The notes under the pieces were generated by a model that made no database searches, had not been told where the DNA came from, and saw nothing but the letters and a program-made list of their open reading frames with translations. The position numbers and the translations under genes were made by a program. A stretch of 64,000 bases of DNA, taken from NCBI GenBank assembly GCA_944345705.1, contig CALVML010000006.1:2202-66201 (forward strand). The letters run 5' to 3'. Positions 23,328 to 60,332 of this stretch are shown one piece after another (the stretch's first letter is position 1; each line of letters starts with the position of its first letter). The DNA is from an uncultured Clostridia bacterium. Its GTDB lineage: Bacteria; Bacillota; Clostridia; Christensenellales; UBA1242.

Positions 23328-23377
23328 GTTAAAAATGAGCAAAATGTCAAATTTTTTTAGAAAAAACGCTAAAACAT

Positions 23378-23405
23378 TTGACATTTTGCGGGGGGGGGGT
23401 ATAAT
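23378..23405 (+). promoter_or_regulatory. Sigma-A-type promoter with a G10 homopolymer in the spacer
   Basis: TTGACA (23378-23383), 16-nt spacer ending in a G10 run (23390-23399), TATAAT (23400-23405). Confidence 0.6.
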
Positions 23406-23457
23406 AGAGTTGTCAAAAAGAGATTTGACATTGAATTTTTTAAAAAGGAGGCGAAAG

Positions 23458-24366
23458 ATGAAAGATTCAAATGTAAGAAGAAAATCGTTTTTGATTATCT
23501 GTAACATTTTACTCGCACTACTTTTACTTGTCACTACAGCTGTGACGATCACACTTGCCGTAAGCAAGTTTAGTATGAACATAGGAGGCAATATCTCATT
23601 TCAGTCAACAGATGTACAGGTAAGTGTAAGTCAAGGCTCGATTGCAAATGGTACAGTTGCAGGTGACAACAAGATGCAGGCATTTAGTGTAACACCAGAA
23701 GATGATGGCAAAACTGGCAAAGCTACATGGAGTGGACTTGAGATCAACTTTGATGGATTAGAAGACGTCACAATCACATTTACAGTGACAAACAACCATA
23801 CAGAAAACAATGTGAAGATGACACTAGGCACAACATCAACTCAAAGCAATAACATGACCATGAAAGCTACAATAGATGGACAGCAAAAGTCTAGTGTAAT
23901 CATACCAGCAAATACAGATTCAAATGACAACACAGTAGAATGTGAAATAACATTCCATATTACAGACAACAAAAAGAGTGCCAACATACAAAACTTTGCA
24001 ATCTCATGTGATCTAGAAAACACCGATGAAGAAATAGGCCACACAGTGACTTTGCAACTAACAGGAATTGAAAGTTTTTATGCATGTTTTGCCTATAAAG
24101 TAAATGGTGGAGAATACCAATATTTTAGTGGAATGGAGGATATTATACTTCAGAAAGTTGAAACTATTCAATTTTTTGGAGATTATGGTGGTTTTGTTGA
24201 AGCGAGAGCGCCAATGAAACCTGGTGATTTAAATTTAAGTATTACTTTCAGTGACTCAAGTTATGAAAAAGCAACTTGTAGTGTAGATAATATGGGGACG
24301 TCCGTAAGTAATAGTGAAATATATACAATATCAAATGATGTTACAATAAGTTTAAATTGTGATTAA
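23458..24366 (+). CDS. Membrane-anchored/secreted protein of unknown function (302 aa)
   Basis: ATG 23458 follows AAAGGAGG. N-terminal anchor FLIICNILLALLLLVTTAVTITLAV, then a Thr/Asn-rich beta-type extracellular region. The upstream part of the track ORF (23335-23457) covers the promoter and is not coding. Confidence 0.6.
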   Translation: MKDSNVRRKSFLIICNILLALLLLVTTAVTITLAVSKFSMNIGGNISFQSTDVQVSVSQGSIANGTVAGDNKMQAFSVTPEDDGKTGKATWSGLEINFDGLEDVTITFTVTNNHTENNVKMTLGTTSTQSNNMTMKATIDGQQKSSVIIPANTDSNDNTVECEITFHITDNKKSANIQNFAISCDLENTDEEIGHTVTLQLTGIESFYACFAYKVNGGEYQYFSGMEDIILQKVETIQFFGDYGGFVEARAPMKPGDLNLSITFSDSSYEKATCSVDNMGTSVSNSEIYTISNDVTISLNCD

Positions 24367-25159: not shown

Positions 25160-25289
25160 GAATTTATTATAGCATGATTTTAATATATTTAAAAATAATA
25201 ATTTAATTTTCCTTTATATTTGCGATTTAGCAAAAAAACATATTTTTAATAATAAATTTAAGTTTTTTTTGATTATTTATTGTAATTTT

Positions 25290-25595
25290 CTATTTTCTGC
25301 CATTGCATCTTGATAGAAGATAGCCTGCAAAGAAATAGAATGCGCGGTTATCTATATTACATACAGGGTTCGGTGGCGAGCAAGGCGGAAAATTTGGCTG
25401 GCAGGGACATGAAAAGTCGCAACTTGGCTGGCAATGAAATGAAAAATCGCAATTAGGTGGTGGGGCGCAATGTGGCGGAGGAAAACAGTTTTGGCATGGA
25501 TTTGAAAATGTCCAATTGCCTAAAAATCTATTACAGCCACAGGGACTACAAAGATCAATGAAAGCGCCTTGGCGATATCTTGTGTTTATAAGCAT
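25290..25595 (-). CDS. Cys/Pro-rich small protein (101 aa), possible spore coat/structural protein
   Basis: 16 Cys and many Pro, with internal repeats (CDFSFHCQPSCDFSCPCQPNFPPC). RBS AAAGGAGAAA lies upstream of the ATG. Function is inferred from composition only. Confidence 0.45.
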   Translation of the reverse strand: MLINTRYRQGAFIDLCSPCGCNRFLGNWTFSNPCQNCFPPPHCAPPPNCDFSFHCQPSCDFSCPCQPNFPPCSPPNPVCNIDNRAFYFFAGYLLSRCNGRK

Positions 25596-28275: not shown

Positions 28276-28409
28276 GTTGACCTCTACAATATCAGTTTAG
28301 ATTTTGGAAAGGAAAATGTGACTATTTTTAAAAATTTGGCAGTGAAGGTTGAAAGCGAAAAAATCCTATCCTATAATTTTGCCATAAGTTGCAAAGGGGA
28401 GTGAAATAA

Positions 28410-28700
28410 GTGGATGATGAAGATAAATTAAGAAAAGCACTACTCAAGAAAGCACTTGGATACAATGCTGACGAAGTGGTCGAAGAATATACTTTTGATG
28501 ACGAGGGCGCGCTAAAGTTGTCAAAAAAGAAGGTCACAAGCAAGCACTATGGTCCAGATATCAGTGCGGTCAAAGTGCTTCTAGAGAGATTTTACAAGAG
28601 TTATGAAGACAAGATATCCGCTTTTGATGATGAGGAGCTTGAAGAAGAAAGATTGCGACTTATAAAAGCACTTAAGGAGAGTGAAAATGGAAATAAATGA
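28410..28700 (+). CDS. Phage small protein, possibly small terminase subunit / DNA-binding
   Basis: 96 aa, GTG start. ...LKKALGYNADEVVEEYTFDDEG...KKKVTSKHYGPDISAVKVLLERF resembles N-terminal regions of small terminase-like phage proteins. Sits just upstream of the portal-like gene. Confidence 0.35.
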   Translation: MDDEDKLRKALLKKALGYNADEVVEEYTFDDEGALKLSKKKVTSKHYGPDISAVKVLLERFYKSYEDKISAFDDEELEEERLRLIKALKESENGNK

Positions 28701-28902
28701 GTGTAAAACCAAAACTAAATGCGATTTTTATGGTTGTAATAACCTTGCAAAATATACATTTTCAACTAAAGGACTGATTAAAAGAGATCTGTGTTTTTGC
28801 GAAGAATGTCTTGAAGGAATGTATCAAGCGATAGCAAAGCTTAAGACTCCAAAGTCAATCAAAAGTCCGTTTAAACTAAATAAAAGGAACATTGTTAAAT
28901 GA
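28687..28902 (+). CDS. Small Cys4 zinc-ribbon-like phage protein
   Basis: MEINECKTKTKCDFYGCNN...LCFCEECLEG. ATG 28687 lies 6 nt after AGGAGA. Confidence 0.45.
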   Translation: MEINECKTKTKCDFYGCNNLAKYTFSTKGLIKRDLCFCEECLEGMYQAIAKLKTPKSIKSPFKLNKRNIVK

Positions 28903-30746
28903 AAAAGGAAGAAGAAAAAATTGTAAATGAAGTGCTTGCCGATTTTAAAGAGCGAGCAGAAAAACGAAAGAGTCTTGACCTTATCTGGCAGGTAAACATG
29001 AATTTTTTAATGGGCAATCAATATTGCAATATTGGCTATGGCGGAAACCTAGAAGAAAGCGAAAGACAATATTTTTGGCAAGAGCGAGAGGTGTTTAATC
29101 ATATTGCACCAACTTTCGATATTCGATATGCAAAACTTACCAAAGTGGACACCGAGATAAACATTTTGCCTTCGACTAATGACGAGCGAGATGTAAAATC
29201 TGCAAAAGTTTCTAAAAAGATAATAAAATCTATCAAAAACAAATTGAAATTGCAATCTATTATCGCGCAGGGCATAAAATGGAGCGAAGTTTGCGGTACT
29301 TGTTTCTATAAGATCACTTGGAATAGTGATAAGGGACAGGTGGTTGGTCTAGATGAGGGCGGACGCCCTGTGAGAAGCGGAGAAGTCGAAGTAAGTGTAG
29401 TCAGTCCTTTTGAAATCTATCCTGACAATCTTGTCACTGAAAAACTTGAAGAATTGCAAAGCATAATTCATGCAAAAGCATATTCTACAGAGGAAGTCAA
29501 AGCCATGTTTGATGTGACAGTAAAAGGACAAGATGTCAATGTCTATAGTCTTGATAGTGTCAATTCGAGTATAGGCGGTCTTGGCTTCAATGGCACAATG
29601 CCGAAGATGATTGAAAGCAGAAAGAGTGACAGCGTCTTAGTGATAGAAAGATATAATAGACCAAACGCCACCTATCCAAATGGCAGACTTACAATAGTTG
29701 CAGGTGACAAGCTTGTATATGACGGCGATCTTCCATATAAAATTGGAAGTGATGACGAGCGTGATTTTCCTTTTGTCAAACAAACAGCGATAGATGAGCC
29801 AGGCTCATTTTTCGGCACAAGCATAATTGAAAGATTGATACCTGTTCAGCGCGCATACAATGCAGTTAAAAATCGAAAACATGAGTTTATCAATAGGCTC
29901 TCTATGGGAGTTTTGTCTGTCGAAGATGGTTCAGTCGATCTTGACAACTTGGAAGACGAGGGCTTGAGTCCTGGTAAAATCTTGGTGTATAGGCAGGGTT
30001 CAAGCGAGCCTAAATATCTTCAAGGTGAAAGTTTGCCAAATGGACTCAGTGATGAAGAAAATGCCTTGCTTGAAGAATTTAATAAGATAAGTGGAGTCAA
30101 TGATATATTGAATTCAAGTTCGCTGTCATCAAATATAAGTGGAACAGCACTTGAATTATTGATTTCACAGGATGAAGAACGCCTTAACGCCTCTATAGAA
30201 AGCATAAGAGGCGCAAATATCGAGATTGCACGCAAAATATTGAAACTTTACAAGCAATATGCAATTTTTCCGCGACTTGCACGAATTGTTGGCGAAAATG
30301 GACAAGTTGAACTATTTTACTTTTCATCGTGCGACATCTCAAGTGATGATGTTGAAATAGAAAATGTATCAAGTGGGCTTAGCAGTATGACGCAAAGACG
30401 AGAGATGATCTTCTCACTGCTTGAGAAGGGGATTTTTAACGATGAAAATGGTCAATTGTCAAGCAAGATGAAGTGCAAGATATTTGAGATGCTTGGCATG
30501 GGCAATTGGGAAAGTGCCCAAGACTTAAACGAGTTACATATCAAAAAGGCGGGAAGCGAAAACCTAAAGATGCTCGACGGAGTCAACTGCAAGGTCAGTG
30601 AGATTGACGAAGATAATCTACACATCAACGAGCATATTGCATTTATGCTTGGCAGTGACTATGAAAAGATGTCAATGAAAAATGCAAATCTCGAGCGGGT
30701 ATTTTTAGAACATATCCGCGCTCATAAACAAAAAATGGAGGGATAA
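28899..30746 (+). CDS. Putative phage portal protein
   Basis: 615 aa. N-terminal ...LIWQVNMNFLMGNQY... (the W..N..F..G.Q pattern common in portal proteins). Size and position before scaffold/capsid genes fit a portal. Confidence 0.55.
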   Translation: MKKEEEKIVNEVLADFKERAEKRKSLDLIWQVNMNFLMGNQYCNIGYGGNLEESERQYFWQEREVFNHIAPTFDIRYAKLTKVDTEINILPSTNDERDVKSAKVSKKIIKSIKNKLKLQSIIAQGIKWSEVCGTCFYKITWNSDKGQVVGLDEGGRPVRSGEVEVSVVSPFEIYPDNLVTEKLEELQSIIHAKAYSTEEVKAMFDVTVKGQDVNVYSLDSVNSSIGGLGFNGTMPKMIESRKSDSVLVIERYNRPNATYPNGRLTIVAGDKLVYDGDLPYKIGSDDERDFPFVKQTAIDEPGSFFGTSIIERLIPVQRAYNAVKNRKHEFINRLSMGVLSVEDGSVDLDNLEDEGLSPGKILVYRQGSSEPKYLQGESLPNGLSDEENALLEEFNKISGVNDILNSSSLSSNISGTALELLISQDEERLNASIESIRGANIEIARKILKLYKQYAIFPRLARIVGENGQVELFYFSSCDISSDDVEIENVSSGLSSMTQRREMIFSLLEKGIFNDENGQLSSKMKCKIFEMLGMGNWESAQDLNELHIKKAGSENLKMLDGVNCKVSEIDEDNLHINEHIAFMLGSDYEKMSMKNANLERVFLEHIRAHKQKMEG

Positions 30747-30747
30747 A

Positions 30748-31464
30748 ATGGAAGAAGAATTTAGAGAACAACCGACGACGGAACTGGCAACCGCTTTAGA
30801 CCGAGCAAATGAGAATAGTGCTGAAAGTGTGGTCGGCTCTCAAGAAAATCTAGGAAAATTCAAATCTGCAAGTGCGTTATACGAGGCCTATAACAATCTT
30901 CAGTCTGAATTTACTAGAAAATGTCAGCTTTTAAGTGAACTACAAAAAGAAAAAACAGGGCAAGAAAACAAAGATGACTATAAGGCAAATGATGATCAAT
31001 CTGCGCCTGCAAGTCAAGACGAAGAAAAATCCAAATTGCAAACCGACAATCTTGAAAAGACCGATTTGCAAGCTGGCGACTTTGAAAAAAGCCAAAGTGA
31101 AATGCAAGCCTCTCTTGCCGAGTTCCTTTTAAGTCATAAGGAAGCTGAAGGTTTTATTGATGAGATTAAAGAAAAGATCTCTCAAGGCAATCAAAATCAA
31201 AATCCTTTTGAAAGTGCGTGGGAAAGCGTAATGCTAGCTCACTTAAAGTCACAAGACCCGAGCGACGTAATTGTAAATCAATATGTAGCTAGTGATGAAA
31301 GGATAAAAAACAAGATAATTCAAGACTATCTATTACAATTAAATGAAGGAAAGCCACCAAAAACGCTATCTTCAAACAGTGGACAAAGGTTGTCTAGTGT
31401 AATTCCTGACAATCCTTTGACACTTGAAGATGCTAAAAAACTTGTTGGCAAAATGTTTAGTTAA
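30748..31464 (+). CDS. Putative capsid scaffolding protein
   Basis: 238 aa, highly acidic, helical/low-complexity, located between the portal-like and capsid-like genes. Confidence 0.45.
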   Translation: MEEEFREQPTTELATALDRANENSAESVVGSQENLGKFKSASALYEAYNNLQSEFTRKCQLLSELQKEKTGQENKDDYKANDDQSAPASQDEEKSKLQTDNLEKTDLQAGDFEKSQSEMQASLAEFLLSHKEAEGFIDEIKEKISQGNQNQNPFESAWESVMLAHLKSQDPSDVIVNQYVASDERIKNKIIQDYLLQLNEGKPPKTLSSNSGQRLSSVIPDNPLTLEDAKKLVGKMFS

Positions 31465-31628
31465 AATAATTATTTAGCGTTAATTTTTATTAATTTAATA
31501 AAAAAATGCAAAAAAATCGCAAAAAGTTTAAAAAAATCATAAAAAATGCGATATTTTAATTATTTTCAACAAACGAAAATTAAAAACAGAAAATAAAAAA
31601 TCTAAAGATTTTTAAAAAAGGAGAAAAT

Positions 31629-32849
31629 ATGGTTACATTACAAACAGCAGAGAGTGCACTTAAAAATGTCTATCTTGGCGTTGTCGCAAACCAACTCAAT
31701 GTCAAGGCAAATCCACTCCTTGCTAAAATCAAACAATCTACTAAAGATGTATGGGGTAAGGAAGTAAGAAAACTTGCTCCTTTCGGTATCAATGGTGGAA
31801 TTGGTGCAGGTAGTGAAACAGACGCCCTTCCATCATCTTCTGCAAACAGCTATGTACAGTTTGTTGCAGACCTAAAAAACCTTTATGGTAAAATCGAGTT
31901 GTCAGATAAAGCAATAAGAGCATCTGCAAACAACATCGGTGCTTTTGTAAATTTACTTTCTGATGAAATGGAAGGACTTGTAAAAGCAAGTTCATTCAAC
32001 CTTGGCAGAATGTTATATGGAGATGGCAGTGGACTTCTTGCAACTGTCAAATCACATGCCTCTAAAGTTATTACTTGCGACAAGGTTAACAACATGATCG
32101 AAGGAATGCTTATCGATGTTTACAACACATCAAGTACAAAAGTTAATACAAATCCGCTCAAGATCGTATATGTTGACAGAGTAAATAATACTGTGACTTA
32201 TGAGTCTAGCGAAACTCTTACTATAAACGAAAACTTTACTCTCTATGTTCAAGGCTCTAAAGGCTATGAGATTTCTGGTCTTGGCAAGATCTTCTCAAGC
32301 GATGACACTATCTATGGCGTAAGCAGGACAGCTCATCCTTGGCTTAAAGCATACACTTCATCTAGCGAAACAGAGATCTCTGATATCTTAATTCAAGAAG
32401 CAATTGACTTTTTGGATATGAATGTTGACAGTCAAATCAACTTTATTGCCTGCTCAAGTCAAGTTCGCCGTGCATATCAAGAGTACCTTGGAGCATACAG
32501 AAGAAATATCGAAGTTATGACTCTTGATGGTGGATACAAGACAATCTCTCACAACGGCATACCTGTTGTTGCTGACAGATTTGTAGACAATGACACTATG
32601 TATCTATTAAATACAAATGATTTCACATTACATCAACTTTGCGATTGGAAGTGGCTTGAAGGCGAAGATGGAAGAATTTTAAAACAAAATCAAGGCTATC
32701 CAACTTACAGCGCAACACTTGTAAAATATGCAGAACTTATCTGTGATAAGCCATGCGGACAGGCAAAGATTTCCAAAATCAAATCTACTGTAACAAATCC
32801 ATTCCAAACTACAGTAAATGTTACAAATAGCGACGGAGAAACTGCTTAA
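31629..32849 (+). CDS. Putative major capsid protein
   Basis: 406 aa with a strong RBS AAAGGAGAAAAT, preceded by a phased A-tract region. Position after the scaffold gene and size are typical of major capsid proteins. Confidence 0.5.
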   Translation: MVTLQTAESALKNVYLGVVANQLNVKANPLLAKIKQSTKDVWGKEVRKLAPFGINGGIGAGSETDALPSSSANSYVQFVADLKNLYGKIELSDKAIRASANNIGAFVNLLSDEMEGLVKASSFNLGRMLYGDGSGLLATVKSHASKVITCDKVNNMIEGMLIDVYNTSSTKVNTNPLKIVYVDRVNNTVTYESSETLTINENFTLYVQGSKGYEISGLGKIFSSDDTIYGVSRTAHPWLKAYTSSSETEISDILIQEAIDFLDMNVDSQINFIACSSQVRRAYQEYLGAYRRNIEVMTLDGGYKTISHNGIPVVADRFVDNDTMYLLNTNDFTLHQLCDWKWLEGEDGRILKQNQGYPTYSATLVKYAELICDKPCGQAKISKIKSTVTNPFQTTVNVTNSDGETA

Positions 32850-32874
32850 TTATTTGTAAATAAAAGTAAGGGGT

Positions 32875-32903
32875 AAGGCAAAAAATTAAAAATTTTTTGC
32901 CTT
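32875..32903 (+). terminator. Hairpin after the capsid gene (weak terminator candidate)
   Basis: AAGGCAAAAAATT-AAA-AATTTTTTGCCTT, with no trailing T run beyond the stem. Confidence 0.35.
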
Positions 32904-32904
32904 T

Positions 32905-33156
32905 CAGACTGTAGACAAACGGCGCGACCGAAAAATTATAAGTAATTTTTCTTGCATCGTATCGTCAAAGGCTACGCTTATGTCAAGTTGTTAAAACAAC
33001 TTAGACTTTAACGCTCTCCTTTTACTCTCCCCATAAATGCAAAAGCATTTACGGGGTACCCCAAAATAAAACGCTCAAAACCAGTCATTTAGGTATACTA
33101 AACTCCTGGCTTTGAGCATTTTTCGAGCCTTGCCTCGCTTGTTTTTCTACAGTCTG
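32905..33156 (+). ncRNA. Candidate structured RNA / MITE-like element (about 250 nt) within the phage-like module
   Basis: Closing inverted repeat CAGACTGTAGA(C)AAAC ... G(T)TTTTCTACAGTCTG. At least five internal hairpins (GAAAAATTA/TAATTTTTC, AAGTTGTT/AACAACTT, CCCCATAAATGC/GCATTTACGGGG, GCTCAAA.CCAG/CTGG.TTTGAGC, TTTAG/CTAAA). Visibly more GC-rich than its flanks. No ORF. Confidence 0.4.
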
Positions 33157-33284
33157 TTAATTCGTCAAAACTTTAATAATTTTTTCTTTAATTTAATAAA
33201 AATTTCAAAAAAAACAGCGATTTTTTTAAAAAAATATGCGATTTTTTGAAAAACAAAAGATATTTTTGCAAAGGAGTTATATTT

Positions 33285-33602
33285 ATGAAACATTTGATTG
33301 AAGTGACAAGCGATACCTTCTATATCTGTCAAAGACTTAAAGATATAGACAAAGATTACTATATTCTTTTTAATTTGACCAGTAAAAAGTTCGAAGTTCA
33401 CGTGCGCGGTCAAGGCAAGAATAGTTATGCGTTTACCGTTCCTTTCGACACACTAGACGAGCGTACACTTTTCTATGCAAGGAAGACCAGAAGAGAGCGC
33501 ATGGACAGGCTCATTGCAGAAATAGAAAGAGAAAATGAAAAATATTATGAGAGAGCGATAAAAGAAGGAGTAGATAAGATAAAGGAGGCTCTATGTCAAT
33601 AA
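33285..33602 (+). CDS. Hypothetical phage-module protein (105 aa)
   Basis: ATG 33285 lies 8 nt after AAAGGAG. No family recognised. Confidence 0.5.
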   Translation: MKHLIEVTSDTFYICQRLKDIDKDYYILFNLTSKKFEVHVRGQGKNSYAFTVPFDTLDERTLFYARKTRRERMDRLIAEIERENEKYYERAIKEGVDKIKEALCQ

Positions 33603-34147
33603 AAGATATAATAATTCTTGCCTGTAGTTTTACCGAAAATGAAGAGCTTAAAGAGGCACTTTCCTCAAATACTGCAAGCCTTGATGAAAAGCAGGCAGAT
33701 CTTGTCAATATGTTTGTCGAGTGCTTTAATTTGATAGCAAACGAAATCGCCAGTGACTATATTCCGCATTATGAGCGTGAAACTTATGTCACCAATGATT
33801 TCAAGATCAACTATTCGAGTTTTTCGACTGTTCCGCTTAAAATCGTTTCGGTAGTTGATAAAAATGGTCACAAAGTGCGCTTTAAAGCATTTGATGACTA
33901 CTTAATGGCACTTGCAAGCGAAGTGACCGTCACCTATCTATCTCAGCCTGAAGAAAAGGGGTTAAATGATAGTGTTGCTAGCGTTATTCCAATGCGGATC
34001 TATGCCTATGGTATGGCGAGAGAATACTATCTTATGCAAACTCTCTATGAAGAGGCGGATATATGGCAAGAGCGTTTCGTACAAGCGCTCCAGTCGCTTT
34101 CGCGCAGGAAAAATGAAACAATGATGCCTGCTAGGAGGTGGCTATAA
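33593..34147 (+). CDS. Hypothetical protein, possibly head-tail adaptor/connector
   Basis: 184 aa, overlaps both neighbours (translational coupling). Position after the capsid gene and a helical N-terminus resemble gp6-like head-tail connectors. Weak. Confidence 0.35.
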   Translation: MSIKDIIILACSFTENEELKEALSSNTASLDEKQADLVNMFVECFNLIANEIASDYIPHYERETYVTNDFKINYSSFSTVPLKIVSVVDKNGHKVRFKAFDDYLMALASEVTVTYLSQPEEKGLNDSVASVIPMRIYAYGMAREYYLMQTLYEEADIWQERFVQALQSLSRRKNETMMPARRWL

Positions 34148-35622
34148 TGAGTTATGCCGATAAGATCAAAAGCAAGGAAAAAGAGTTTAGATTTAGTCTT
34201 TTTGCGTCAAATTCAGCAAAAAACAGTGATGAACTTGAAAAAGTCGGACTTACAAAAGAAAAATATAACCTGATTTGCTCTGACGGTTCGCTTAAGTCTG
34301 GCTATGGTTTTGCCGACTTAAAGATGCCGACAAGCGAAACAGACCTAGACAGTGAAAGTGTGGTTGATTTTCGTGGCGACTCTGTCAAAGCCATCTGGAA
34401 ACTCAAGTGGTTTGATGTGAGCGCAGACACCAACAAATACTATCTTTTCTACTTTAATGATGAAGGATATATTTGTTATGACAATATGTTTGGCGTGCGA
34501 GTGACTTCGTTTATTGTGCCAAACACTTTCACGCAAACGCCTTTTTGCGCCTATTATCGCAAAGGCACTCAAGACGCACTGCTCCTGTCAGGTGAAGGGG
34601 ACAGTTTGACCGTGCTTACAGGCGGATCAAACGAGAAAAATGAAGACGCGCCCGAGATTATATCAATTTGCGTATATTCAGACAAACTCTTTGCAATCAC
34701 TGCCAGCGATAGAGCGTCACTGATCTATACTGACGATATAGAGATTTTGAATTTCACTGACGAAAAGACTGCAGAACTTGATTTTGGTGATGAGCGTGGA
34801 AACTTGCAAAGACTTATCTCTTTCAATGACTATCTTTACATTTTCCGCGATTATGGCATAACAAAACTATCGGTGTATGGAACGAGCGAAACCTTTGCCG
34901 TAAATCATCTTTATCATAGTGACAGCTACATATATCCAAACTCGATCTGCCTAAATGGCGAGGATGTTTACTTTTTAAACTGCAATGGACTAAAGAAATT
35001 TAACGGAACAAGCGTAAGCGATCTTGATCTCGATGGCTTTGACCTGATAAAAGATATAAATCAAGCAAAATGCTATGCCTCGATCTATGACGGCAAGTAT
35101 TATCTTGCGTGCAGGGGAAAGGTCAGCGGTGACGGTGTAGGGTGCGAGAATAATACTCAAGGCTACACGAATAATATGCTTTTTGTCTATGACATCTTGA
35201 CAAAACAGACCGACATTGTCCGTGGTATTGATATCAATATGCTTTTGACTTTCAATAACCCTTTTAAATCAAAACTGCTGGCTTGCTTCAATGGCTCAGA
35301 TTTAATAGGAAAGGTTGGTCAGCTTTCTAAAGATGGCAAATTTTTCTCAAGTCCAATAAAGAAATATTGGAAAAGCACTTGTACCGACTTTGGCTATCCA
35401 AATGCAAGCAAACGGGTGTCATCTTTCAATATCAAAAGTCTTTATGTTTGCAAGGTGAGGATTGTCAGCGATAAGGATAGTAGAGAGTTCGAGATAGGTG
35501 GCAATAGTGACTTGCAAAAGATTAAAGTAAACCTAAGAGGCAATGAATTCTATTTTGAAATTACAAGCGAAGATTTGGTGGATATCAGTAATTTTGTTGT
35601 AAATGTGAGTGTTAAAGAATGA
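34147..35622 (+). CDS. Hypothetical 491-aa structural-module protein (beta-rich)
   Basis: ATG 34147 overlaps the preceding stop (TAATG) and follows AGGAGG. No motif recognised. Confidence 0.5.
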   Translation: MSYADKIKSKEKEFRFSLFASNSAKNSDELEKVGLTKEKYNLICSDGSLKSGYGFADLKMPTSETDLDSESVVDFRGDSVKAIWKLKWFDVSADTNKYYLFYFNDEGYICYDNMFGVRVTSFIVPNTFTQTPFCAYYRKGTQDALLLSGEGDSLTVLTGGSNEKNEDAPEIISICVYSDKLFAITASDRASLIYTDDIEILNFTDEKTAELDFGDERGNLQRLISFNDYLYIFRDYGITKLSVYGTSETFAVNHLYHSDSYIYPNSICLNGEDVYFLNCNGLKKFNGTSVSDLDLDGFDLIKDINQAKCYASIYDGKYYLACRGKVSGDGVGCENNTQGYTNNMLFVYDILTKQTDIVRGIDINMLLTFNNPFKSKLLACFNGSDLIGKVGQLSKDGKFFSSPIKKYWKSTCTDFGYPNASKRVSSFNIKSLYVCKVRIVSDKDSREFEIGGNSDLQKIKVNLRGNEFYFEITSEDLVDISNFVVNVSVKE

Positions 35623-35718
35623 AACTTGTATATCTAGACACTATTGACAGGATCAATCGAGAGAGATTTCAAAGGGAGATAGAGATTGCAAAAAAGTTAA
35701 TTGTCAAGGAGAAGTAAA

Positions 35719-35943
35719 ATGGATTTCTGGGCAGAACTTGTCAAAATCATTGTCAGCAATGGCATATTTGCAATGCTCTTTGTATTCTTGTTTTTCTATC
35801 AACTTAAAGATAGTGCAAAAAGAGAAGAGTCATATAAACAGACAATCGAGTCACTAACCGATCATTTGGATGTGCTCGAGCAGGTGCGTGATGAAATACG
35901 CGAACTGAAATCTCTTGTTACAGGGGGAGAAGATGAAGAATAA
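35719..35943 (+). CDS. BhlA/UviB-family holin-like protein
   Basis: MDFWAELVKIIVSNGIFAMLFVFLFFYQLKDSAKREE... parallels the BhlA pattern (GPFAVLFCWLLFYVMKTSKERE) followed by a coiled-coil tail. Confidence 0.7.
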   Translation: MDFWAELVKIIVSNGIFAMLFVFLFFYQLKDSAKREESYKQTIESLTDHLDVLEQVRDEIRELKSLVTGGEDEE

Positions 35944-36262
35944 AATAAAATCTTATGGTTTTTGGACAGCTCTTGCTGGTGCTGTGGTCGTGCTTGTCAA
36001 TGCACTAGGGCAGATGTTTGGCTTTTCAGTAGATAATGAAATAATCACAAATGTGATTATGTCGATTGCAGGGCTTCTTGTTGTGCTTGGCGTGGTAACA
36101 ATGCCAAAAGGTGACAGCAATCAGCAGGAAGGGAAGAGCGAAGAAACAGACGCAGAAAGCAAAGAAATAGACGCAGAAAGCGAAAGTGAAACGCTTTTTC
36201 TTGCTGAAGACGAGAAAGACCTTAGCACAGAAAATGATCAAAAAGCAAAGCCAAACGAATAA
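35933..36262 (+). CDS. Phage holin (phi LC3-like family)
   Basis: MKNKIKSYGFWTALAGAVVVLVNALGQMFGF...IAGLLVVLGVV: two TM segments plus a charged C-terminal tail. Overlaps the preceding holin gene. Confidence 0.6.
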   Translation: MKNKIKSYGFWTALAGAVVVLVNALGQMFGFSVDNEIITNVIMSIAGLLVVLGVVTMPKGDSNQQEGKSEETDAESKEIDAESESETLFLAEDEKDLSTENDQKAKPNE

Positions 36263-36341
36263 TTTTTGGTGCTTAGTATGTTTTGCTGGGTTATTAAATT
36301 TTTTCAGTGGGAAACACAAAGATCAATAGAAATTTTTGAAT

Positions 36342-36380
36342 AAAAAAGGGGGACAATTTTGTCCCCCCTTTTATATTTTT
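36342..36380. terminator. Bidirectional Rho-independent terminator
   Basis: GGGGGAC-AATTTT-GTCCCCC flanked by an A run and a T run, between convergent genes. Confidence 0.8.
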
Positions 36381-38664: not shown

Positions 38665-39834
38665 TTAACATAATTCAACATTGTAATCGTCATCAAAATA
38701 ATAGTTGTAGGTTGCAAGGTTTTGAGAATACTCATTTGCCTGTTCAATCTTTTCACCAGCAAAAGTATATTCAGTTGATTGAGATGTAGTTGTATATTTT
38801 CCTTCTTGAATATTGGCAATAATATCTTTAGGATTAACAGTAGATGCTTCTGCTCTTAAAGTGTATTTTTGGATACCATTATTTGTAATTTGATAAACTG
38901 TAATACTACTGTAATATATTCCATTATTTGCTACAGGAGTTCCGATACTGCACCAAATATCACCTTCAAGGGCGTTGTCAGCATCAATTGTTTGTATTAC
39001 AGTTTTGCCAAGGTCGGTGTTGTTTTCAATATCTTTCAAGGCAATTTCTGAATCTCTATAAGCAACAGAATAAGTAGCATCAGTTGCATTTCCTTTAATA
39101 ATATCTTGTACTGAATATGCTTGATTAAATGTTACTTTTCCAACTTTAAAATATCGAGTTGTGTCTGTATCATAGTATACTTTTACTTGTAATTCTTTTA
39201 TTTGATTATTATTGCTATTTGTAATCATCCATTCAGTGCTTGAAATATCATCAGCAGTGCCATTTCTTCCAATAAATTGTTTTGCTAAACTTTCCAAATG
39301 TGTTTCATTTAAGATTTGAGTAAACTCGTCAGCAAAATAGTTGATTTCGTCAACTTCGTCAACTTTGTCAATACTATCTGGAATGTCTTCATCACCAGGA
39401 TTTTCAGGATCGCCTGGATTTTCAGGATCATCTGGATCGGTAGGGTCAGAAGGGTCAGGATCGATAACAGGATCATCCGGATCAATGACAGGGTCATCAG
39501 GATCAATAACAGGGTCATCCGGATCAATAACAGGATCATCCGGATCAATAACAGGGTCATCAGGATCAATAACAGGGTCATCAGGATCAATAACAGGGTC
39601 ATCAGGTTCGTCTGGAAGAGGATTAACAATTCCTGGATCGTCTATGCTTGGATCGTCTTTATCAGGGTTACAACTTGATGTGCAACCTGCAAAGATAGAG
39701 ATAAGGCTTGCAATTAGAAGAACAGTAGCAATTTTAGCAAGTTTGTTTTTCTTGTGACTTTTTACAATGCCTCTATTTTTTTTCTTCTTTGTTTCAACTT
39801 TTGTTTCAACTTTTTCGAATTCGTTGTTTTCCAT
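38665..39834 (-). CDS. Lipoprotein with (DPDDPVI)x7 tandem repeat linker
   Basis: ATG 39834 lies 6 nt after AGGAGG. Lipobox SIFAGC. Seven heptad repeats, then a beta-rich C-terminal domain. Confidence 0.7.
   Translation of the reverse strand: MENNEFEKVETKVETKKKKNRGIVKSHKKNKLAKIATVLLIASLISIFAGCTSSCNPDKDDPSIDDPGIVNPLPDEPDDPVIDPDDPVIDPDDPVIDPDDPVIDPDDPVIDPDDPVIDPDDPVIDPDPSDPTDPDDPENPGDPENPGDEDIPDSIDKVDEVDEINYFADEFTQILNETHLESLAKQFIGRNGTADDISSTEWMITNSNNNQIKELQVKVYYDTDTTRYFKVGKVTFNQAYSVQDIIKGNATDATYSVAYRDSEIALKDIENNTDLGKTVIQTIDADNALEGDIWCSIGTPVANNGIYYSSITVYQITNNGIQKYTLRAEASTVNPKDIIANIQEGKYTTTSQSTEYTFAGEKIEQANEYSQNLATYNYYFDDDYNVELC
39457..39607 (-). repeat. In-frame 21-bp tandem repeat (about 7 copies)
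   Basis: GGATCAATAACAGGGTCATCA/C units on the + strand encode DPDDPVI on the - strand. Copies differ only at synonymous positions. Confidence 0.9.
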
Positions 39835-40049
39835 AAACAACCTCCTTAAATTTTTTTATTGCAATAACAAATGCATATTTCTACATTTATTATAGCAGAT
39901 ATAAATTAAATTTCAAGTGCTTTTTTAAAATTTGTCAAAATATTTTATGCTTTTACTCGCCATATTTGAATTTGGTTTAGTTTCTCCATCAATTCAAATT
40001 CTAATGTGTAAATATAGTTAATTTCATGCTGTCGGTTTGAGTTTTGCAC

Positions 40050-42317: not shown

Positions 42318-43258
42318 AAACTTTAAAACAAAGACTAAAAAGCGGACTTGACAATTTCTATCTTCTTCAAGGCGAAGATAGTTATTTGTATGATAGGGCA
42401 CTTTCGATGATTAAAAAAGCTTGCAACATTTCCTTTCCTGATTTTAATTATCAGTTTTTTGACGATGAAAATTTTTCGGCAAACGCCCTTCGAGCAAGCC
42501 TCGAAAGTATGCCTTTCTCAGACGAAAAAAGATTGTCTGTTGTAAAAAACGTTGAAAAATTATCTGAAAACGACAAAAAAATCATCATATCCTATTGCGA
42601 AAATCCGCTTTCTTCAAGCGTGCTTGTGGTTTGCGACTATGCAAATAAATTTGATTTTTTAAAGCCCTATTCGCAGTTTGTAGATTGCAAACGCTTTGAT
42701 TATGCACTCGCAAAGGCAATTATTGTAAATGATTTCGCAAAATACAACAAGAAGATAAGCGAAGAGGCGATCACTGCTCTGTATGACAGTTGCAATGGCT
42801 ATCTTTCAAAGATTTCGCTTGAAATACAAAAAATATCCGCCTACCTTGGTGATGAGGAGTTTGTTACAAAACAGGTTGTCGACAACTTGACCAGCAAGGA
42901 TAGCGAATATATGGTTTTTGAACTTACTGAAAGTCTAGGCGCGAAGAAAACAAGTCGGGCAATCGAACTTTTAAACCTTATGCTTAAACAACAAGGACTT
43001 TTGGCTCTCATTACAAATCATTTTCGAAGACTATTTTTTATTTCCATTTCAGATCAAGACAACAAAACGCTTGCAAATCTTCTCGGTGTCAAGGAGTATG
43101 CAGTTGCCAAAATGCGCACGCAAGTTAAAAACTTTTCAAAAGTGCAACTTAAAAAGATCTATTCTCTCCTTGAAGAAGTTGATTATATGATAAAAAGTGG
43201 TGCAATGCTACAAGATACAGCATTAAATTATCTCGTCTTTTCAATACTTAATATATGA
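42314..43258 (+). CDS. holA: DNA polymerase III delta subunit HolA
   Basis: 314 aa. N-terminal ...FYLLQGEDSYLYDRAL... pattern and the conserved comEC-holA synteny. Start overlaps the comEC stop. Confidence 0.8.
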   Translation: MKTLKQRLKSGLDNFYLLQGEDSYLYDRALSMIKKACNISFPDFNYQFFDDENFSANALRASLESMPFSDEKRLSVVKNVEKLSENDKKIIISYCENPLSSSVLVVCDYANKFDFLKPYSQFVDCKRFDYALAKAIIVNDFAKYNKKISEEAITALYDSCNGYLSKISLEIQKISAYLGDEEFVTKQVVDNLTSKDSEYMVFELTESLGAKKTSRAIELLNLMLKQQGLLALITNHFRRLFFISISDQDNKTLANLLGVKEYAVAKMRTQVKNFSKVQLKKIYSLLEEVDYMIKSGAMLQDTALNYLVFSILNI

Positions 43259-43299
43259 TAAGGATATAACAAGGACAAAACTTAAATTACAATTTACAA

Positions 43300-43500
43300 A
43301 AATTCAGTGAAAATTTCATATAATATCTAGTCAGAATTTTTAAAAAAATCTAGTAAAATTTCAAGGAAAGTCTACCAAGTTTTAAATAAGAAATTGGCTC
43401 AGATTTTCAATTTGACTTTGCTCACTTAAATATAGAAATTTGTCAGATTTTAATTTATGTTTGGCTAGTTTTTAATAAGATAATTAGCCGTTTTTTCATA
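43300..43500 (+). repeat. Iteron-like array: about 8 degenerate direct repeats at roughly 21-22-bp spacing
   Basis: Recurrent (C)TAG/CAG-N-(A/T)TTTT(C/A)A cores at about 43309, 43335, 43355, 43377, 43402, 43445, 43466 and 43489. Confidence 0.5.
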
Positions 43501-44060
43501 AAAGCCTTATCAAGACTAATAAATTTATTTTTTCGAAATTAAGCAAACATAATTTAAAAATTTAAAACAGCATAGTTATGTTTTCATAACAATGTTATAT
43601 TTTTAGTTATTATTACCGAAAGAGAGTAGCTAAGTAACTTTTTCGAGCGCAAACTATTGCTTGTTTTCTTGTAGTTTGGTAATTCTTTGATATCTATTTG
43701 ACTTTACATAAAATCAAATTAAAACTAGCATAGTTATTAAAACATAATTATGCTAATTTTTAGATATGATTACTTTGATCTTTAAGTGCTTTAAGTATAT
43801 CTTTGCATGTATTTATTGTGAGAATATGATATTGTATTTTTAAGTAATCATAGATAATAATGCAGAAAAAAAATATCATTTGCTTTAATGTGCCGAGATT
43901 TTGAATATTTTGTGAAGCCGATCATGCATACTAATTCTGTTTTTTATTTTATCAAGTGTAGTTGAAAACTTACATAGTTATAAAAACATGACTATGTATA
44001 TCATTATCATCATCATTAAATGATTTTATAAACAATTTTAAAGCGTTGGAGGGTTAAATC

Positions 44061-44178
44061 GAAGTAAAACTTGCAAACTTATTTTGAAAAATATAGAGTT
44101 GAGAGAATTTATGAATTTAGTTTTTGACTCTACACAAAACTGATTTAAAACTTACATAGTTATGAAAACATAACTATG
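44061..44178 (+). repeat. About 118-bp direct repeat, copy 1
   Basis: GAAGTAAAACTTGCAAACTTATTTTGAAAAATATAGAGTTGAGAGAATTTATGAATTTAGTTTTTGACTC... ending in the palindrome. Near-identical copy at 44386-44502. Confidence 0.85.
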
Positions 44179-44385
44179 CTAGCTTTTAGTTATACTATGT
44201 TTTTTAGTTATGATTTCCGCAAGAGAGTGGTTAAGCCACTTTCTCGAGCGCAAGCTATTAACTGTTTTTGCTGGATAGTTATTAAAACATAACTATGTAA
44301 TATTATTAAATTTAATCTTTTAATGCACGAAATTTAATCTTTATTAAGCAAATTTGAAACGTTTTTTTGGTAGGGGGGGGGAACT

Positions 44386-44502
44386 GAAGTAAGCCCTGCA
44401 AACTTATTTTGAAAAATATGGAGTTGAGAGAATTTAAGAATTTAGTTTTTGACTTTACATAAAATCGATTAAAAGTAGCATAGTTATGAAAACATAACTA
44501 TG
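44386..44502 (+). repeat. About 118-bp direct repeat, copy 2 (preceded by a G9 tract at 44373-44381)
   Basis: GAAGTAAGCCCTGCAAACTTATTTTGAAAAATATGGAGTTGAGAGAATTTAAGAATTTAGTTTTTGACTT... ending in the palindrome. Confidence 0.85.
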
Positions 44503-44639
44503 TTACTTTTTTTATTTAGATATTTTGTTTTTAGTAATTTTGATGTAAGGTTTATCTATGGCAGTTAGTATGTAAAATTTCAAAAAAAGATATTGTTCGT
44601 ATAATATATTTGCTTTTTAATATGGATCTTTATTAAATT

Positions 44640-45018
44640 TATATTATCGGAAGCCGAACTTGCTTGCAAGGGTGAGGCTGATGGTTATACATACTATGTG
44701 ATGAGTATGCGTTAGCATACAAATTCGCCAGAATTTATAAAATTTTATGATAATAAAATTTTAACATCACTTAGTTTATATTATCGGAAGCCGAACTTGC
44801 TTGCAAGAGTGAGGCTGATGGTTATACATACTGTGTGATAAGTATGCGTTAGCATACAAATTCGCCAGAATTTATAAAATTTTATGATAATAAAATTTTA
44901 ACATCACATTGTTTATATTATCTGAAGTCGAACCAAGCGTGACGAAGTCGCATTTGAGTGAGACTGATGGTTATACATACTGTGATGGACATAATTTATT
45001 GTGTTTTTGCGTTTAGTA
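44640..45018 (+). repeat. Tandem array of a 137-bp structured repeat (2 full units + 1 divergent truncated unit)
   Basis: Units start with TATATTATCGG at 44640 and 44777 and with TATATTATCTG at 44914. Each unit holds hairpins CTTGC-TT-GCAAG, GTATGC-GTTA-GCATAC and TAAAATTTTAT..ATAAAATTTTA, within an ACTATGTGATG/CATCAC.TAGT closing repeat. Confidence 0.9.
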
Positions 45019-45066
45019 ATAACTTATAAGCCTTTCATAAATGTAGACATCGACATCAGTTTTCAT
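45013..45066 (-). CDS. Candidate 17-aa micro-ORF (MKTDVDVYIYERLISYY)
   Basis: ATG at 45066 lies 5 nt after AAAGGAGA, stop TAA at 45013-45015. Divergent from the XRE gene. No conservation evidence is available. Confidence 0.25.
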   Translation of the reverse strand: MKTDVDVYIYERLISYY

Positions 45067-45120
45067 ATTCATCTCCTTTTTGTTATTACCTATATCTAAT
45101 TATACATATTTTAAATATTT

Positions 45121-45148
45121 TTGCAAATAATTTCAATAGATGTAATAT
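45121..45148 (+). promoter_or_regulatory. Candidate promoter of the XRE gene
   Basis: TTGCAA (45121-45126), 16-nt spacer, TAATAT (45143-45148). Confidence 0.4.
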
Positions 45149-45183
45149 GCATACTTTAATTCTTAATAATGTAAAATAAATGC

Positions 45184-45507
45184 ATGAAAGAAATTGATAA
45201 AAAATACATAGGTCAAAGAATTGCAACTCTTAGAAATGCAAAAAAGATATCAGCTAGAAATATGAGTTTAGATTTAGGGCAGAGTAGTGAGTATATAAAT
45301 CAAATAGAAAACGGCAGGAATTTTCCGTCACTAGAGGGGCTTTTAAATATTTGCGAATATTTTAATATTTCTATTGCCGAATTTTTTGATGAACAAAATA
45401 CCTATCCTTTGCAATATAAACAACTGATTTCACAATTAAACAAGTTAGACAATAGTGAACTTGATCTCATCATCGAATTAGTAAAATTAATAACAAAAGA
45501 TAAATAG
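45184..45507 (+). CDS. XRE-family helix-turn-helix transcriptional regulator (107 aa)
   Basis: IGQRIATLRNAKKISARNMSLDLGQSSEYINQIENGRNFPSLEGLLNICEYFNISIAEFF is a classic HTH_3/Cro-C1 domain. Confidence 0.85.
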   Translation: MKEIDKKYIGQRIATLRNAKKISARNMSLDLGQSSEYINQIENGRNFPSLEGLLNICEYFNISIAEFFDEQNTYPLQYKQLISQLNKLDNSELDLIIELVKLITKDK

Positions 45508-45576
45508 ATAAAATAAAACAGATATTTGTTAGTTTTCAAATTAAAAATAATTAAAATAAAATCATTTTAAATTAAA

Positions 45577-45610
45577 AACAACATAGTTATTAAAACATAA
45601 CTATGTTGTT
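45577..45610 (+). terminator. Seventh palindrome copy acting as terminator of the XRE gene
   Basis: AACAACATAGTTAT-TAAA-ACATAACTATGTTGTT followed by TTTTGTTTT, about 70 nt after the stop codon. Confidence 0.65.
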
Positions 45611-45824
45611 TTTGTTTTATTAAGTTGTTTGATTTTTGACAGATAATGATTGATTTAGTGTATTTACAGTTACAAGTGGAACAATTTTTTAAATGTTCAA
45701 AAATAAATATTTTTGGTGAAATCAAAAGAAGTCGTCTTTAGGAGAATTCGATTTTGTCATAATTTGCCAGTTTTTTAGTTTTGCATTATTGTTTATTCAA
45801 AATGGATTTTTCTTTAAATATCTC

Positions 45825-45871
45825 TCTTACAATAGTAAGAATTGATTATTTTTTTTTTTACTATTGTGAGA
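45825..45871 (+). promoter_or_regulatory. Operator-like inverted repeat with a T11 tract upstream of the second XRE gene
   Basis: TCTTACAATAGTAA (45825-45838) pairs with TTACTATTGTGAGA (45858-45871) with one mismatch. T11 run at 45849-45859. Confidence 0.45.
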
Positions 45872-45881
45872 AAATAACGTC

Positions 45882-46088
45882 ATGAACAACAAATTTAAAG
45901 AAATTCTTAAATCATTAAGAATAGAAAACAATGTTACTCAGCCACAACTTGCTACCGCAATAGGAGTAAGCAATGGTTTAATAAGTCTATGGGAAAATGG
46001 CTTGCGTGAACCGACAATGTCGAATTTGATCGTGCTAGCCAAATTTTTTCATGTAAGCATAGACTATTTAGTTGGGCTTGAAGATTAA
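45882..46088 (+). CDS. XRE-family helix-turn-helix transcriptional regulator (68 aa)
   Basis: LKSLRIENNVTQPQLATAIGVSNGLISLWENGLREPTMSNLIVLAKFFHVSIDYLVG is an HTH_3 domain only. Confidence 0.85.
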   Translation: MNNKFKEILKSLRIENNVTQPQLATAIGVSNGLISLWENGLREPTMSNLIVLAKFFHVSIDYLVGLED

Positions 46089-46268
46089 GATGATTTCTGC
46101 ATACCTGTATTAAAACATTTTTATTAACATATATAACATTATCAAATTTTAAATCTTTTGATTTCAAATATATAATACCAAAAAAGAAAAGACAATGTCA
46201 AACCATTTCTTACATTTGTAAGAATTTTTTTATAATATTAAAAAGTGATAGGGGGGGGAATAATATAT

Positions 46269-46838
46269 ACTATGTGATGTTAAAATTTTATGATCATAAA
46301 ATTTTAATAAATTCTGGCGAATTTGTATGCTAACGCATACTTATCACATAGTATGTATAACCATCAGCCTCACCCTTGCAAGCAAGTTCGGCTTCCGATA
46401 ATATAAACAATGTGATGTTAAAATTTTACTATCATAAAATTTAATAAATTCTGGCGAATTTGTGTGCTAATGCACACTCATCACATAGTATGTATAACCA
46501 TCAGTCTCACTCAAATGCGATTTTATCGCGCTTGGTTCGGCTTCCGATAATATAAACAATGTGATGTTAAAATTTTACTATCATAAAATTTTATAAATTC
46601 TGTCGAATTTGTGTGCTAACGCATACTCATCACATAGTATGTATAACCATCAGCCTCACCCTTGCAAGCAAGTTCGGCTTCCGATAATATAGACTATATG
46701 ATGTTAAAATTTAAGCAAGTTAAATTTTAAATTTGCTAAACGCAAAAACACAATAAATTGTGTTCATCACAGTATGTATGACCATCAGTCTCACTCAAAT
46801 GCGATTTCATCGCGCTTGGTTCGACTTCCGATAATATA
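46269..46838 (-). repeat. Inverted-orientation tandem array of the same structured repeat (4 units, 137-149 bp)
   Basis: On the + strand: units at 46269-46405, 46406-46554, 46555-46691 and 46692-46838 (divergent). They are the reverse complement of the 44.64-kb units. Preceded by a G8 tract at 46251-46258. Confidence 0.9.
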
Positions 46839-46909
46839 AAAACTGTATAAGTATATAAAAAATATGATCTTATCATTTTTTTATTATAATCTTAACTGAA
46901 AACATTTAT

Positions 46910-48553: not shown

Positions 48554-48562
48554 ATTTCTCCT

Positions 48563-50170: not shown

Positions 50171-50348
50171 TATAAACCTCTATACAAATAGTACCATAAT
50201 TTTTAAAAAAGTCAATAAAGAATAAATATAATTATTTCTTAATAAAATTATATTTTAAATTTCTATAAAATATTTTTTAGTAATAAGAAGTACAATTTCT
50301 ATTTGCAATTTTTGATAAAATATGCTATTGTTAAAGTTAGGAGATAAA

Positions 50349-60086: not shown

Positions 60087-60140
60087 AATATTTCTGAATT
60101 ATTAAAAAGATTGTTTTTAAGAAACTTTTATCTAATAAAA

Positions 60141-60174
60141 GGCTTGCCTTGTGGCAAGCCCTTTCAATTTTTTT
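60141..60174 (+). terminator. Rho-independent terminator after ligA
   Basis: GGCTTGCC-TTGT-GGCAAGCC followed by CTTTCAATTTTTTT. Confidence 0.8.
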
Positions 60175-60255
60175 ATTATTTATGCATATATATGTAAGAT
60201 AATAACGCAAAAATATTAAAAATTCAAGTTGACATTAATTTATAGTTAAAATTAA

Positions 60256-60284
60256 TTGACTATTTTTGTAAAAAATGTTACAAT
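60256..60284 (+). promoter_or_regulatory. Promoter of the RiPP operon
   Basis: TTGACT (60256-60261), 17-nt spacer, extended -10 TGTTACAAT (60276-60284). Confidence 0.65.
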
Positions 60285-60332
60285 ATAATTGATAATTTAT
60301 GTAAATTAAATTATCTAGAAGGAGGAGGGAAA

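Follow-up and report, generated by a model that had tools for sequence, protein, structure and literature searches.

Gene transfer agents (GTAs) are known from very few lineages. To our knowledge, FpGTA of Faecalibacterium, which dates from 2026, is the only one described in gut commensals. It is a podovirus-like GTA of Faecalibacterium prausnitzii, and its genes are split between two operons: operon I, of about 10 kb, encodes a small terminase (TerS), a large terminase (TerL), a portal, a scaffold and a major capsid protein (MCP), and a second operon carries tail-fiber and lysis genes (PMC12946183). FpGTA capsids of about 40 nm hold 8.4–8.9 kb of host DNA (PMC12946183). The same paper reports GTA-like packaging in the Christensenellaceae QANA01, seen as host DNA reads of about 6.3 kb, but assigns no genes to this packaging (PMC12946183). 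Our subject is a block of genes at positions 28410–36262 of a 64-kb stretch of contig CALVML010000006.1, from an uncultured Clostridia bacterium; we call the whole 64-kb stretch the window. We think it likely, though well short of certain, that a split GTA-like ('viriform') system, domesticated, vertically inherited and derived from a podovirus, has its structural and lysis half in this block and its TerL elsewhere in the genome. The carriers of this particle system are a large clade of gut Clostridia. No description of the particle family turned up in the literature we searched, in which PMC12946183 was the sole paper found to bear on it.

Head and short-tail genes

An earlier note on this DNA had described the block as a head and holin module of eleven co-directional, often overlapping genes, with no recognizable tail gene. 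The layout is real: the open reading frames (ORFs) of the block all lie on the plus strand and several overlap by a few bases. The count here is ten (Table 1). The head genes in that description stand, and the absence of a tail does not.

The 615-aa protein that had been called portal-like is a portal of the P22/SU10 type by both Pfam and PHROG profiles, and it is 24–25% identical to the portals of Arthrobacter podophages over 93–99% of the length. Likewise, the 406-aa capsid-like protein is an MCP of podovirus type, scoring 266.8 bits against the NCBIfam model NF033394 (capsid_maj_Podo; cutoff 80). It is 66–91% identical across the other 79 of the species loci described below. For the block as a whole, the nearest cultured phages are the Jasmine-type phages of Arthrobacter, Microbacterium and Cellulosimicrobium, at about 25% identity. 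The acidic 238-aa protein between the two gave no match in family searches. It stands where a scaffold would be expected, is acidic and of low complexity, and is kept in all loci, all of which points to a scaffolding protein.

Where the note saw no tail genes, two ORFs fold as components of a podovirus tail. The AlphaFold2 model of the 184-aa protein (pLDDT 88.8) is matched by Foldseek to the head-to-tail adaptors of Pa223 (TMq 0.66), SU10, N4, DEV, PhiM1 and KHP30, with E values from 1e-6 to 1e-4. A Pfam scan found PF24175 (SU10_adaptor) as two weak matches among 33 homologs, and the protein's sequence profile gave nothing significant against PDB sequences, so its identity as an adaptor rests on the fold. 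The 494-aa protein is modeled as a beta-propeller (pLDDT 88.7, pTM 0.89) that Foldseek places with the tail nozzles of Pa223 (9nwi_Y, E 6.9e-19, TMq 0.71), VP1, SU10, GP4 and T7 gp12; its sequence profile reaches the SU10 chain 7z47_G, labeled 'Surface protein', at E 0.009. When the profiles of m6 and of these two proteins were aligned by hhalign with single proteins of Arthrobacter phage Jasmine, the results were not significant. As modeled, the block encodes a full portal–adaptor–nozzle axis, and the virion set of a T7/SU10-type podovirus (portal, HK97-fold podovirus MCP, gp11-like adaptor and gp12-like beta-propeller nozzle) is present. No fiber, needle or receptor-binding gene is evident in the block. 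Many relatives have, between nozzle and holins, a DUF7934 (PF25588) gene of about 300 aa, the product of which could be a fiber, a needle or a lysin.

Three small conserved proteins accompany the recognizable ones. The first ORF, m1, had been called small-terminase-like, and this holds in part: it does resemble small terminases, but weakly and only over the C-terminal part of the TerS PHROG (phrog_309, 1.2e-5). Its profile found no significant match among PDB sequences, and its homologs lie directly after TerL in L084, L090, L094, L097 and L101 (L-numbers are loci of relatives). The next, m2, is the Cys4 ORF of the note, and its four cysteines (C14, C19, C40 and C43) are indeed invariant in the homolog alignment, which also shows a conserved PKxIESPFK tail. 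It too occurs in the TerL-containing relatives L084 and L097, and its profile gave nothing significant against PDB sequences. The third, m6, had been given 118 aa; by homolog alignment it most likely starts at 33285, making it 105 aa. Homologs of it occur in TerL-containing L097 and in two phage-like relatives, L082 and L089, and it has neither a family match nor a significant profile match to PDB sequences. The operon closes with the two holins, BhlA/UviB-like and phi LC3-like, that had been predicted, both of which are recovered by their families.

Family scans found no TerL, integrase, replication gene, repressor or lysin/endolysin gene in the block, just as the note had said, and the rest of the scanned window, which is housekeeping, likewise has no TerL, integrase, replication gene or endolysin; a tblastn search of the window with five TerL proteins also found no match. 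The block therefore carries head, tail and lysis genes without genes for replication, integration or lysogeny, and this is a gene content expected of a GTA.

Table 1. The module, its signals and related features. Positions are those of the window, except in the last two rows, where they are those of the loci named. dN/dS is the median pairwise ratio of nonsynonymous to synonymous substitution rates; MITE, miniature inverted-repeat transposable element.
Feature	Position	Strand	Evidence and remarks
Sigma-A-type promoter (predicted)	28349..28377	+	TTGAAA-N17-TATAAT; best promoter match in region, 11/12 positions; RNA contigs begin downstream at 28399-28401
m1, 96-aa conserved small protein	28410..28700	+	phrog_309 TerS 1.2e-5, profile positions 196-262 of 319; dN/dS 0.26
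m2, 73-aa Cys4 (CX4C...CX2C) zinc-ribbon-like protein	28681..28902	+	dN/dS 0.44
Portal protein, 615 aa, P22/SU10 type	28899..30746	+	PF16510 P22_portal 2.3e-19; phrog_156 5.7e-36; dN/dS 0.24
Acidic 238-aa protein, scaffold position	30748..31464	+	dN/dS 0.35
MCP, 406 aa, podovirus type	31629..32849	+	phrog_14242 1.3e-53; dN/dS 0.16
MITE-like multi-copy repeat between MCP and m6	32880..33185		Inverted ends of about 40 bp
m6, 105-aa conserved protein	33285..33602	+	ORF opens 33246; conserved start 33285; dN/dS 0.40
Head-to-tail adaptor, 184 aa	33593..34147	+	AlphaFold2 fold; Foldseek
Tail nozzle, 494 aa, beta-propeller, T7 gp12/SU10/Pa223 type	34138..35622	+	AlphaFold2 fold; Foldseek
BhlA/UviB-type holin, 80 aa	35701..35943	+	PF10960 1.9e-16; phrog_2429 2.1e-12; dN/dS 0.27
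Second holin, 115 aa, Phage_holin_1 type	35915..36262	+	PF04531 2.5e-6; phrog_297 8.2e-12
Intrinsic terminator, operon end (predicted)	36348..36367	+	GGGGGACA-ATTT-TGTCCCCC, then T-rich tail; GC-rich
DUF7934 gene in relatives	L054 13774-14664; L057 13780-14685; L097 12763-13704		
Activator, secreted protein and TerL trio in relatives	L099 3292-6239; L103 8506-11461; L054 378-3335; L090 8243-11431		

Conservation and chromosomal setting

Scanning one genome per GTDB species with the capsid protein, we found a close MCP relative in 351 species-representative genomes and fetched the best 80 of these matches as loci. The carriers are uncultured Clostridia; Christensenella and Catabacter appear in the record labels of the 80 loci. 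Wherever the contig reaches, the whole module is there in the same gene order (80/80 loci). ORF lengths are conserved, and about 12 of some 700 gene instances look interrupted, leaving about 98% intact. Median pairwise dN/dS is 0.16 for the capsid gene, 0.24 for the portal gene and 0.26–0.50 for the other module genes; host genes give 0.075 (ABC ATPase), 0.26 (rsmE) and 0.40 (comEC) by the same measure. Protein distances within the module track those of the adjacent ABC ATPase (for the portal, Pearson r = 0.92, Mantel p = 0.001), and MCP and ATPase have equal rates of evolution. The earlier note had argued from intact ORFs against simple decay. The ORFs are intact across the 80 species with dN/dS well below 1 for each gene, and together with the co-divergence this rules simple decay out. 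The co-divergence fits vertical descent, and vertical inheritance across a host clade under purifying selection, the pattern we find here, is a further mark of a GTA.

Near relatives have the same flanks as the window: an ABC transporter on the left, and a lipoprotein gene, comEC and holA on the right. The block had been described as bounded by host genes of just this kind, and so it is. In distant clades the module lies elsewhere, between Tex/PGI and fmt/rlmN, between rplS and RNase J, and in other places. Altogether, housekeeping genes border it in at least four distinct chromosomal settings, and none of these has an integrase. Att-like direct repeats, which the note had suggested seeking at the borders, were looked for and none bracket the block. 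Its GC content is not distinct from that of the rest of the window. In four DNA-like runs, contigs covering the stretch between dnaK and the lipoprotein gene, module included, have even depth (21–24 in X12; X-numbers are sequencing runs), so there is no sign of excision or amplification.

The large terminase in relatives

An exhaustive search with HMMER brought in distant capsid relatives (2414 clusters at E ≤ 1e-3, of which 304 reach ≤ 1e-30), and their genomic contexts were read. It is here that TerL comes into view. A Terminase_6N TerL of 472–487 aa lies directly 5' of module homologs in L084, L090-093, L094-096, L097-098 and L101-102, and after it come m1 (and m2), portal, scaffold, capsid, (m6), adaptor and nozzle. 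Among the proteins clustered with the L094-096 TerLs is one named from Candidatus Borkfalkia faecigallinarum, and among those clustered with the L097-098 TerLs is one from Candidatus Limihabitans stercoravium. Capsids of these relatives are 56–59% identical to the window MCP, in genomes of 40–65% GC (41% for L084).

TerL is always preceded by two genes. One encodes a small sigma-70 region-4/DUF1492-like protein that resembles phage late activators; the other, divergently transcribed, encodes a secreted protein of 220–286 aa with no family match. This trio stays together even where TerL has been orphaned from the structural genes. Scanning metagenomes with TerL gave four further loci (L156, L139, L143 and L148) in which the architecture is complete and finishes with the same pair of holins. 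With L097, they give the ancestral order: sigma-like activator, minus-strand gene, TerL, m1, m2, portal, scaffold, MCP, m6, adaptor, nozzle, ..., BhlA, holin. The window module is thus exactly the ancestral cluster without the three genes at its head.

By sequence comparison, the progressive splitting of TerL from the module can be followed through the relatives. Eleven module loci have a TerL 5' of the module (L051, L054, L061, L062, L065, L068, L072-074, L080 and L081); the match of about 473 residues is uninterrupted in eight and cut by the contig end in three, at 68–72% identity to the L099 TerL. In L054 a 3.6-kb insertion, which includes the gene for an 833-aa surface protein, has come between TerL and module, and in its clade tblastn matches about 97% of the length of TerL without a break. 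TerL is 6.5 kb upstream of the module in L144, and in L106 and L108 no module follows it within 10 kb. In L099/L100, L103-105, L133 and L163, the trio or TerL alone sits among dnaB/serS, feoB or RecX genes; with L106 and L108 counted in, the neighbors of orphaned TerLs also include Tex.

Some of these orphans invite comparison with the genome from which the window comes. We considered L133 as a link, having an nrdR-like/feoB pair in common with the window, but at 40–50% identity it is too distant. When contigs were aligned to L103 at a likeness of 80%, TerL was matched only in patches. The matches include a 6.3-kb contig with a depth of 18.4 in X12, against 21–24 for the window in that run, which is suggestive only. 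L099 has the GC content of the window (0.357), and the identities of its TerL to other lineages fall in the same rank order as those of the window MCP to the same lineages. We infer that the window genome still has a TerL.

Transcription in the chicken gut

The operon is transcribed as a unit in vivo, in the chicken gut. Four chicken-gut metatranscriptomes contain operon-length RNA contigs that start at 28399–28492 and end at 36311–36326, positions that fit the predicted promoter and terminator (Table 1). A promoter motif of the form TTGAnn-N16-18-TAnnAT recurs at the same distance 5' of gene 1 in about 35 related loci. RNA depth over the module is 40–140, and in X2 it reaches 310–350 at the capsid gene. 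For comEC and the lipoprotein genes these runs give 0–54 per bin, mostly near zero, and for the ABC transporter 55–1200. Depth this uneven between module and neighbors argues that the contigs represent RNA and not contaminating DNA. Within X2, depth over the MCP gene is about 4.5 times that of the portal region; the rise, from about 31022 onward, may reflect an internal promoter or a processing site.

A proposed split gene transfer agent and its rivals

The earlier note had left three options for the block: a decayed prophage, a satellite borrowing TerL and tails, or a domesticated capsid or particle system. It is the last of these that the evidence supports, with a module intact across species, under purifying selection and transcribed in vivo. 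A split cluster best accounts for the missing TerL, since some relatives have it directly 5' of gene 1 and other lineages have moved it away.

How might such a system work? A single sigma-A-type promoter would drive a transcript of about 7.9 kb. Portal, scaffold and capsid protein would build a small procapsid, which a TerL encoded elsewhere in the genome would fill with DNA; in relatives the gene for that TerL lies directly 5' of gene 1, accompanied by one for a sigma-like late activator. The products of m1 and m2, always found after TerL in relatives, may assist packaging. Adaptor and nozzle would close the portal and form a stub tail, and the two holins would release the particles. The cargo is probably host DNA, which the particles would transfer.

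Several points weigh against a split GTA. Searches of the window, and of ABC-flanked loci up to 10 kb from the module, found no TerL, and the evidence that would join this module to an orphan TerL within a single genome is circumstantial. The cluster is without an endolysin, tail-fiber or receptor-binding gene, and the DUF7934 gene of relatives is missing from the window's clade. Expression of GTAs is normally kept under tight restriction, and it is unusual for one to have a near-consensus sigma-A promoter and bulk RNA in sizeable amounts. Finally, the marker gene used for co-divergence is linked to the module, so an ancient transfer of the whole region is compatible with that result.

The bulk RNA and the strong sigma-A-type promoter directly before m1 are also points in favor of a domesticated particle that is DNA-free or otherwise not a GTA, the main rival. 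The window's clade would then have lost TerL and would make, for example, a protein-carrying, decoy or bacteriocin-like agent released by the BhlA/UviB-type holins. The absence of TerL from the cluster in several independent chromosomal contexts suits this idea, as does the classing of BhlA/UviB holins with bacteriocin release (phrog_2429). We nevertheless judge it unlikely. Low-GC genomes contain intact orphan TerLs of this very family, complete with activator and partner gene, and the TerL of the L054 clade lies only 3.6 kb 5' of an otherwise identical module. The TerL-associated m1 and m2 are still under purifying selection, and a nozzle and adaptor make most sense for retaining and ejecting DNA. 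We give slightly less credence still to a clade lacking any TerL, in which hundreds of gut Clostridia species would keep and express a portal-bearing, nozzle-tipped capsid that is empty or filled with something other than DNA packaged by a terminase. It would serve as a non-genetic device that carries cargo, decoys phages or kills.

A capsid-forming satellite, making its own heads and hijacking the TerL and tail of a helper phage, is very improbable. The likeness to the capsid-forming phage-inducible chromosomal islands (cf-PICIs) is superficial: a TerS-like ORF, portal, capsid and connector are present without TerL, but the integrase, replication or regulatory module, the att sites and the patchy, mobile distribution of that class are not. 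Instead, dozens of species have the same flanks, with which the module co-diverges. DNA depth is flat, an adaptor and a nozzle are encoded in the block itself, and the TerS-like gene comes after TerL in relatives.

Least credible of all is a plain prophage remnant drifting to loss: many essential phage functions are missing from the block and a MITE has inserted inside the operon, but the roughly 98% of gene instances that are intact ORFs of conserved length in 80 species, dN/dS well below 1 in every gene (0.16–0.50), an MCP as conserved as the ABC ATPase and transcription of the operon as a unit in vivo are the opposite of the frameshifts, truncations, relaxed selection and lineage-specific presence that a remnant would display.

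The inserted repeat and the rest of the window

The MITE-like repeat sits in an MCP–m6 gap that measures 435 bp in the window and has no phage match; in related species the gap is only 3–190 bp. The repeat is missing from the strains of RNA runs X2 and X3, where a joint runs from 32904 to 33172. Its DNA depth is about six times that of its flanks, joints in the DNA runs lead to a further copy near 25202, and partial copies occur in L055 and L052. The repeat is strain-polymorphic and was no part of the ancestral operon. A separate 54-nt AT-rich direct repeat (31484–31537 and 33182–33235, 76% identity) stands just 5' of the capsid gene and of m6.

In the rest of the window, the remaining large ORFs with a family match are all housekeeping: ftsW, murA, ftsQAZ, feoB, hrcA-grpE-dnaK-dnaJ, rsmE and the ABC transporter, and comEC, holA, der, plsY, spoIVA, pcrA and ligA. 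No tRNA genes or Rfam matches were found in the window. To the left of the block, a 343-aa gene at 23335–24366 has no family match, is strongly transcribed in some metatranscriptomes (depth 145–375) and is missing from strains in four DNA runs (joint 23326->24450). A minus-strand ORF at 25290–25595 encodes a Cys/Pro-rich protein of 101 aa, with many CxxC-like and PPP motifs, that is 36–44% conserved in some relatives. To the right, a lipoprotein-like ORF at 38665–39840 (minus strand) has about eight tandem DPDDPVI repeats, and the 702-aa lipoprotein-like ORF beside it has no family match yet is kept next to the module in near relatives. Two regions, 43000–50200 and 60000–62000, are markedly AT-rich (GC 0.24–0.30). 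The first holds two minus-strand ORFs of 535–547 aa without a Pfam match; the second holds a radical SAM/SPASM enzyme, which suggests a possible peptide-modification locus.

Comparison with known systems

This operon, taken with its TerL-containing relatives, is a concrete candidate for the unnamed genes behind the packaging of about 6.3 kb in Christensenellaceae. As a GTA, the system would be a second, independent domestication of a podovirus, with a close MCP relative in at least 351 species-level genomes and transcription in vivo. Should its particles transfer DNA, they could provide Christensenellales-like bacteria, which have repeatedly been linked to host health, with a major route of gene flow. 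The relatives, with clusters ranging from contiguous to split, are, moreover, a natural record of the dispersal of a GTA over the genome. All of this makes the locus of interest for GTAs, for phage domestication and for gene flow in the gut.

Among phages, the podophages of the SU10, Pa223 and T7 types and the Jasmine-like phages of Arthrobacter have portals, MCPs, adaptors and nozzles homologous to those of the window by sequence or fold, in the same head-then-tail gene order. They differ in having TerL adjacent, and in their tail fibers, internal or ejection proteins, endolysin and replication genes. The cf-PICIs share with the window system the encoding of capsid, portal and connector but not TerL; they, however, are mobile, with integrase, replication and regulatory genes and with tails supplied by a helper, none of which the window system has. 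PBSX of Bacillus is, like the window system, a phage-like element in a Gram-positive chromosome. It makes particles and lyses its producer, as is proposed for the window system. PBSX is myovirus-like: its tail is contractile, and a single locus carries a repressor, a terminase of its own and lysins. The two are alike in neither sequence nor architecture.

In RcGTA and the other alphaproteobacterial GTAs, too, a domesticated cluster of phage structural genes has been inherited vertically over a whole clade and kept by purifying selection. Their essential genes are spread over several loci, as is proposed for the window system, and their TerS, like the TerS-like protein here, lacks a DNA-binding domain. 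These GTAs are siphovirus-like, with an HK97-type head, a protease, a long tail and TerL in the main cluster; the window system is podovirus-like, with TerL probably split off.

FpGTA, with which we began, offers a further parallel. Both it and the window system are chromosomal, podovirus-like head and short-tail clusters of about ten genes in gut Clostridia, FpGTA being near-ubiquitous in its hosts. Both lack replication and integration genes, and both have holin-type lysis genes and a small TerS-like protein without a DNA-binding domain. The functions of FpGTA are spread over more than one locus, as those of the window system probably are. The differences lie in the parts. According to the names in its proteomics table, FpGTA has a capsid of the N4-gp56 family, a Prp-type protease between portal and capsid, and a TerL that adjoins the portal. 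In the window system the MCP matches only NF033394, an acidic scaffold occupies the Prp position, two small genes stand between the TerL position and the portal, TerL is outside the operon and the holins are inside it. We considered membership in the FpGTA family and set it aside, since the N4-gp56 capsid, the Prp protease and the TerL-adjoining portal are all lacking when the two are compared by family names. Set apart by those names, the window system and FpGTA appear to work alike and to be separate domestications.

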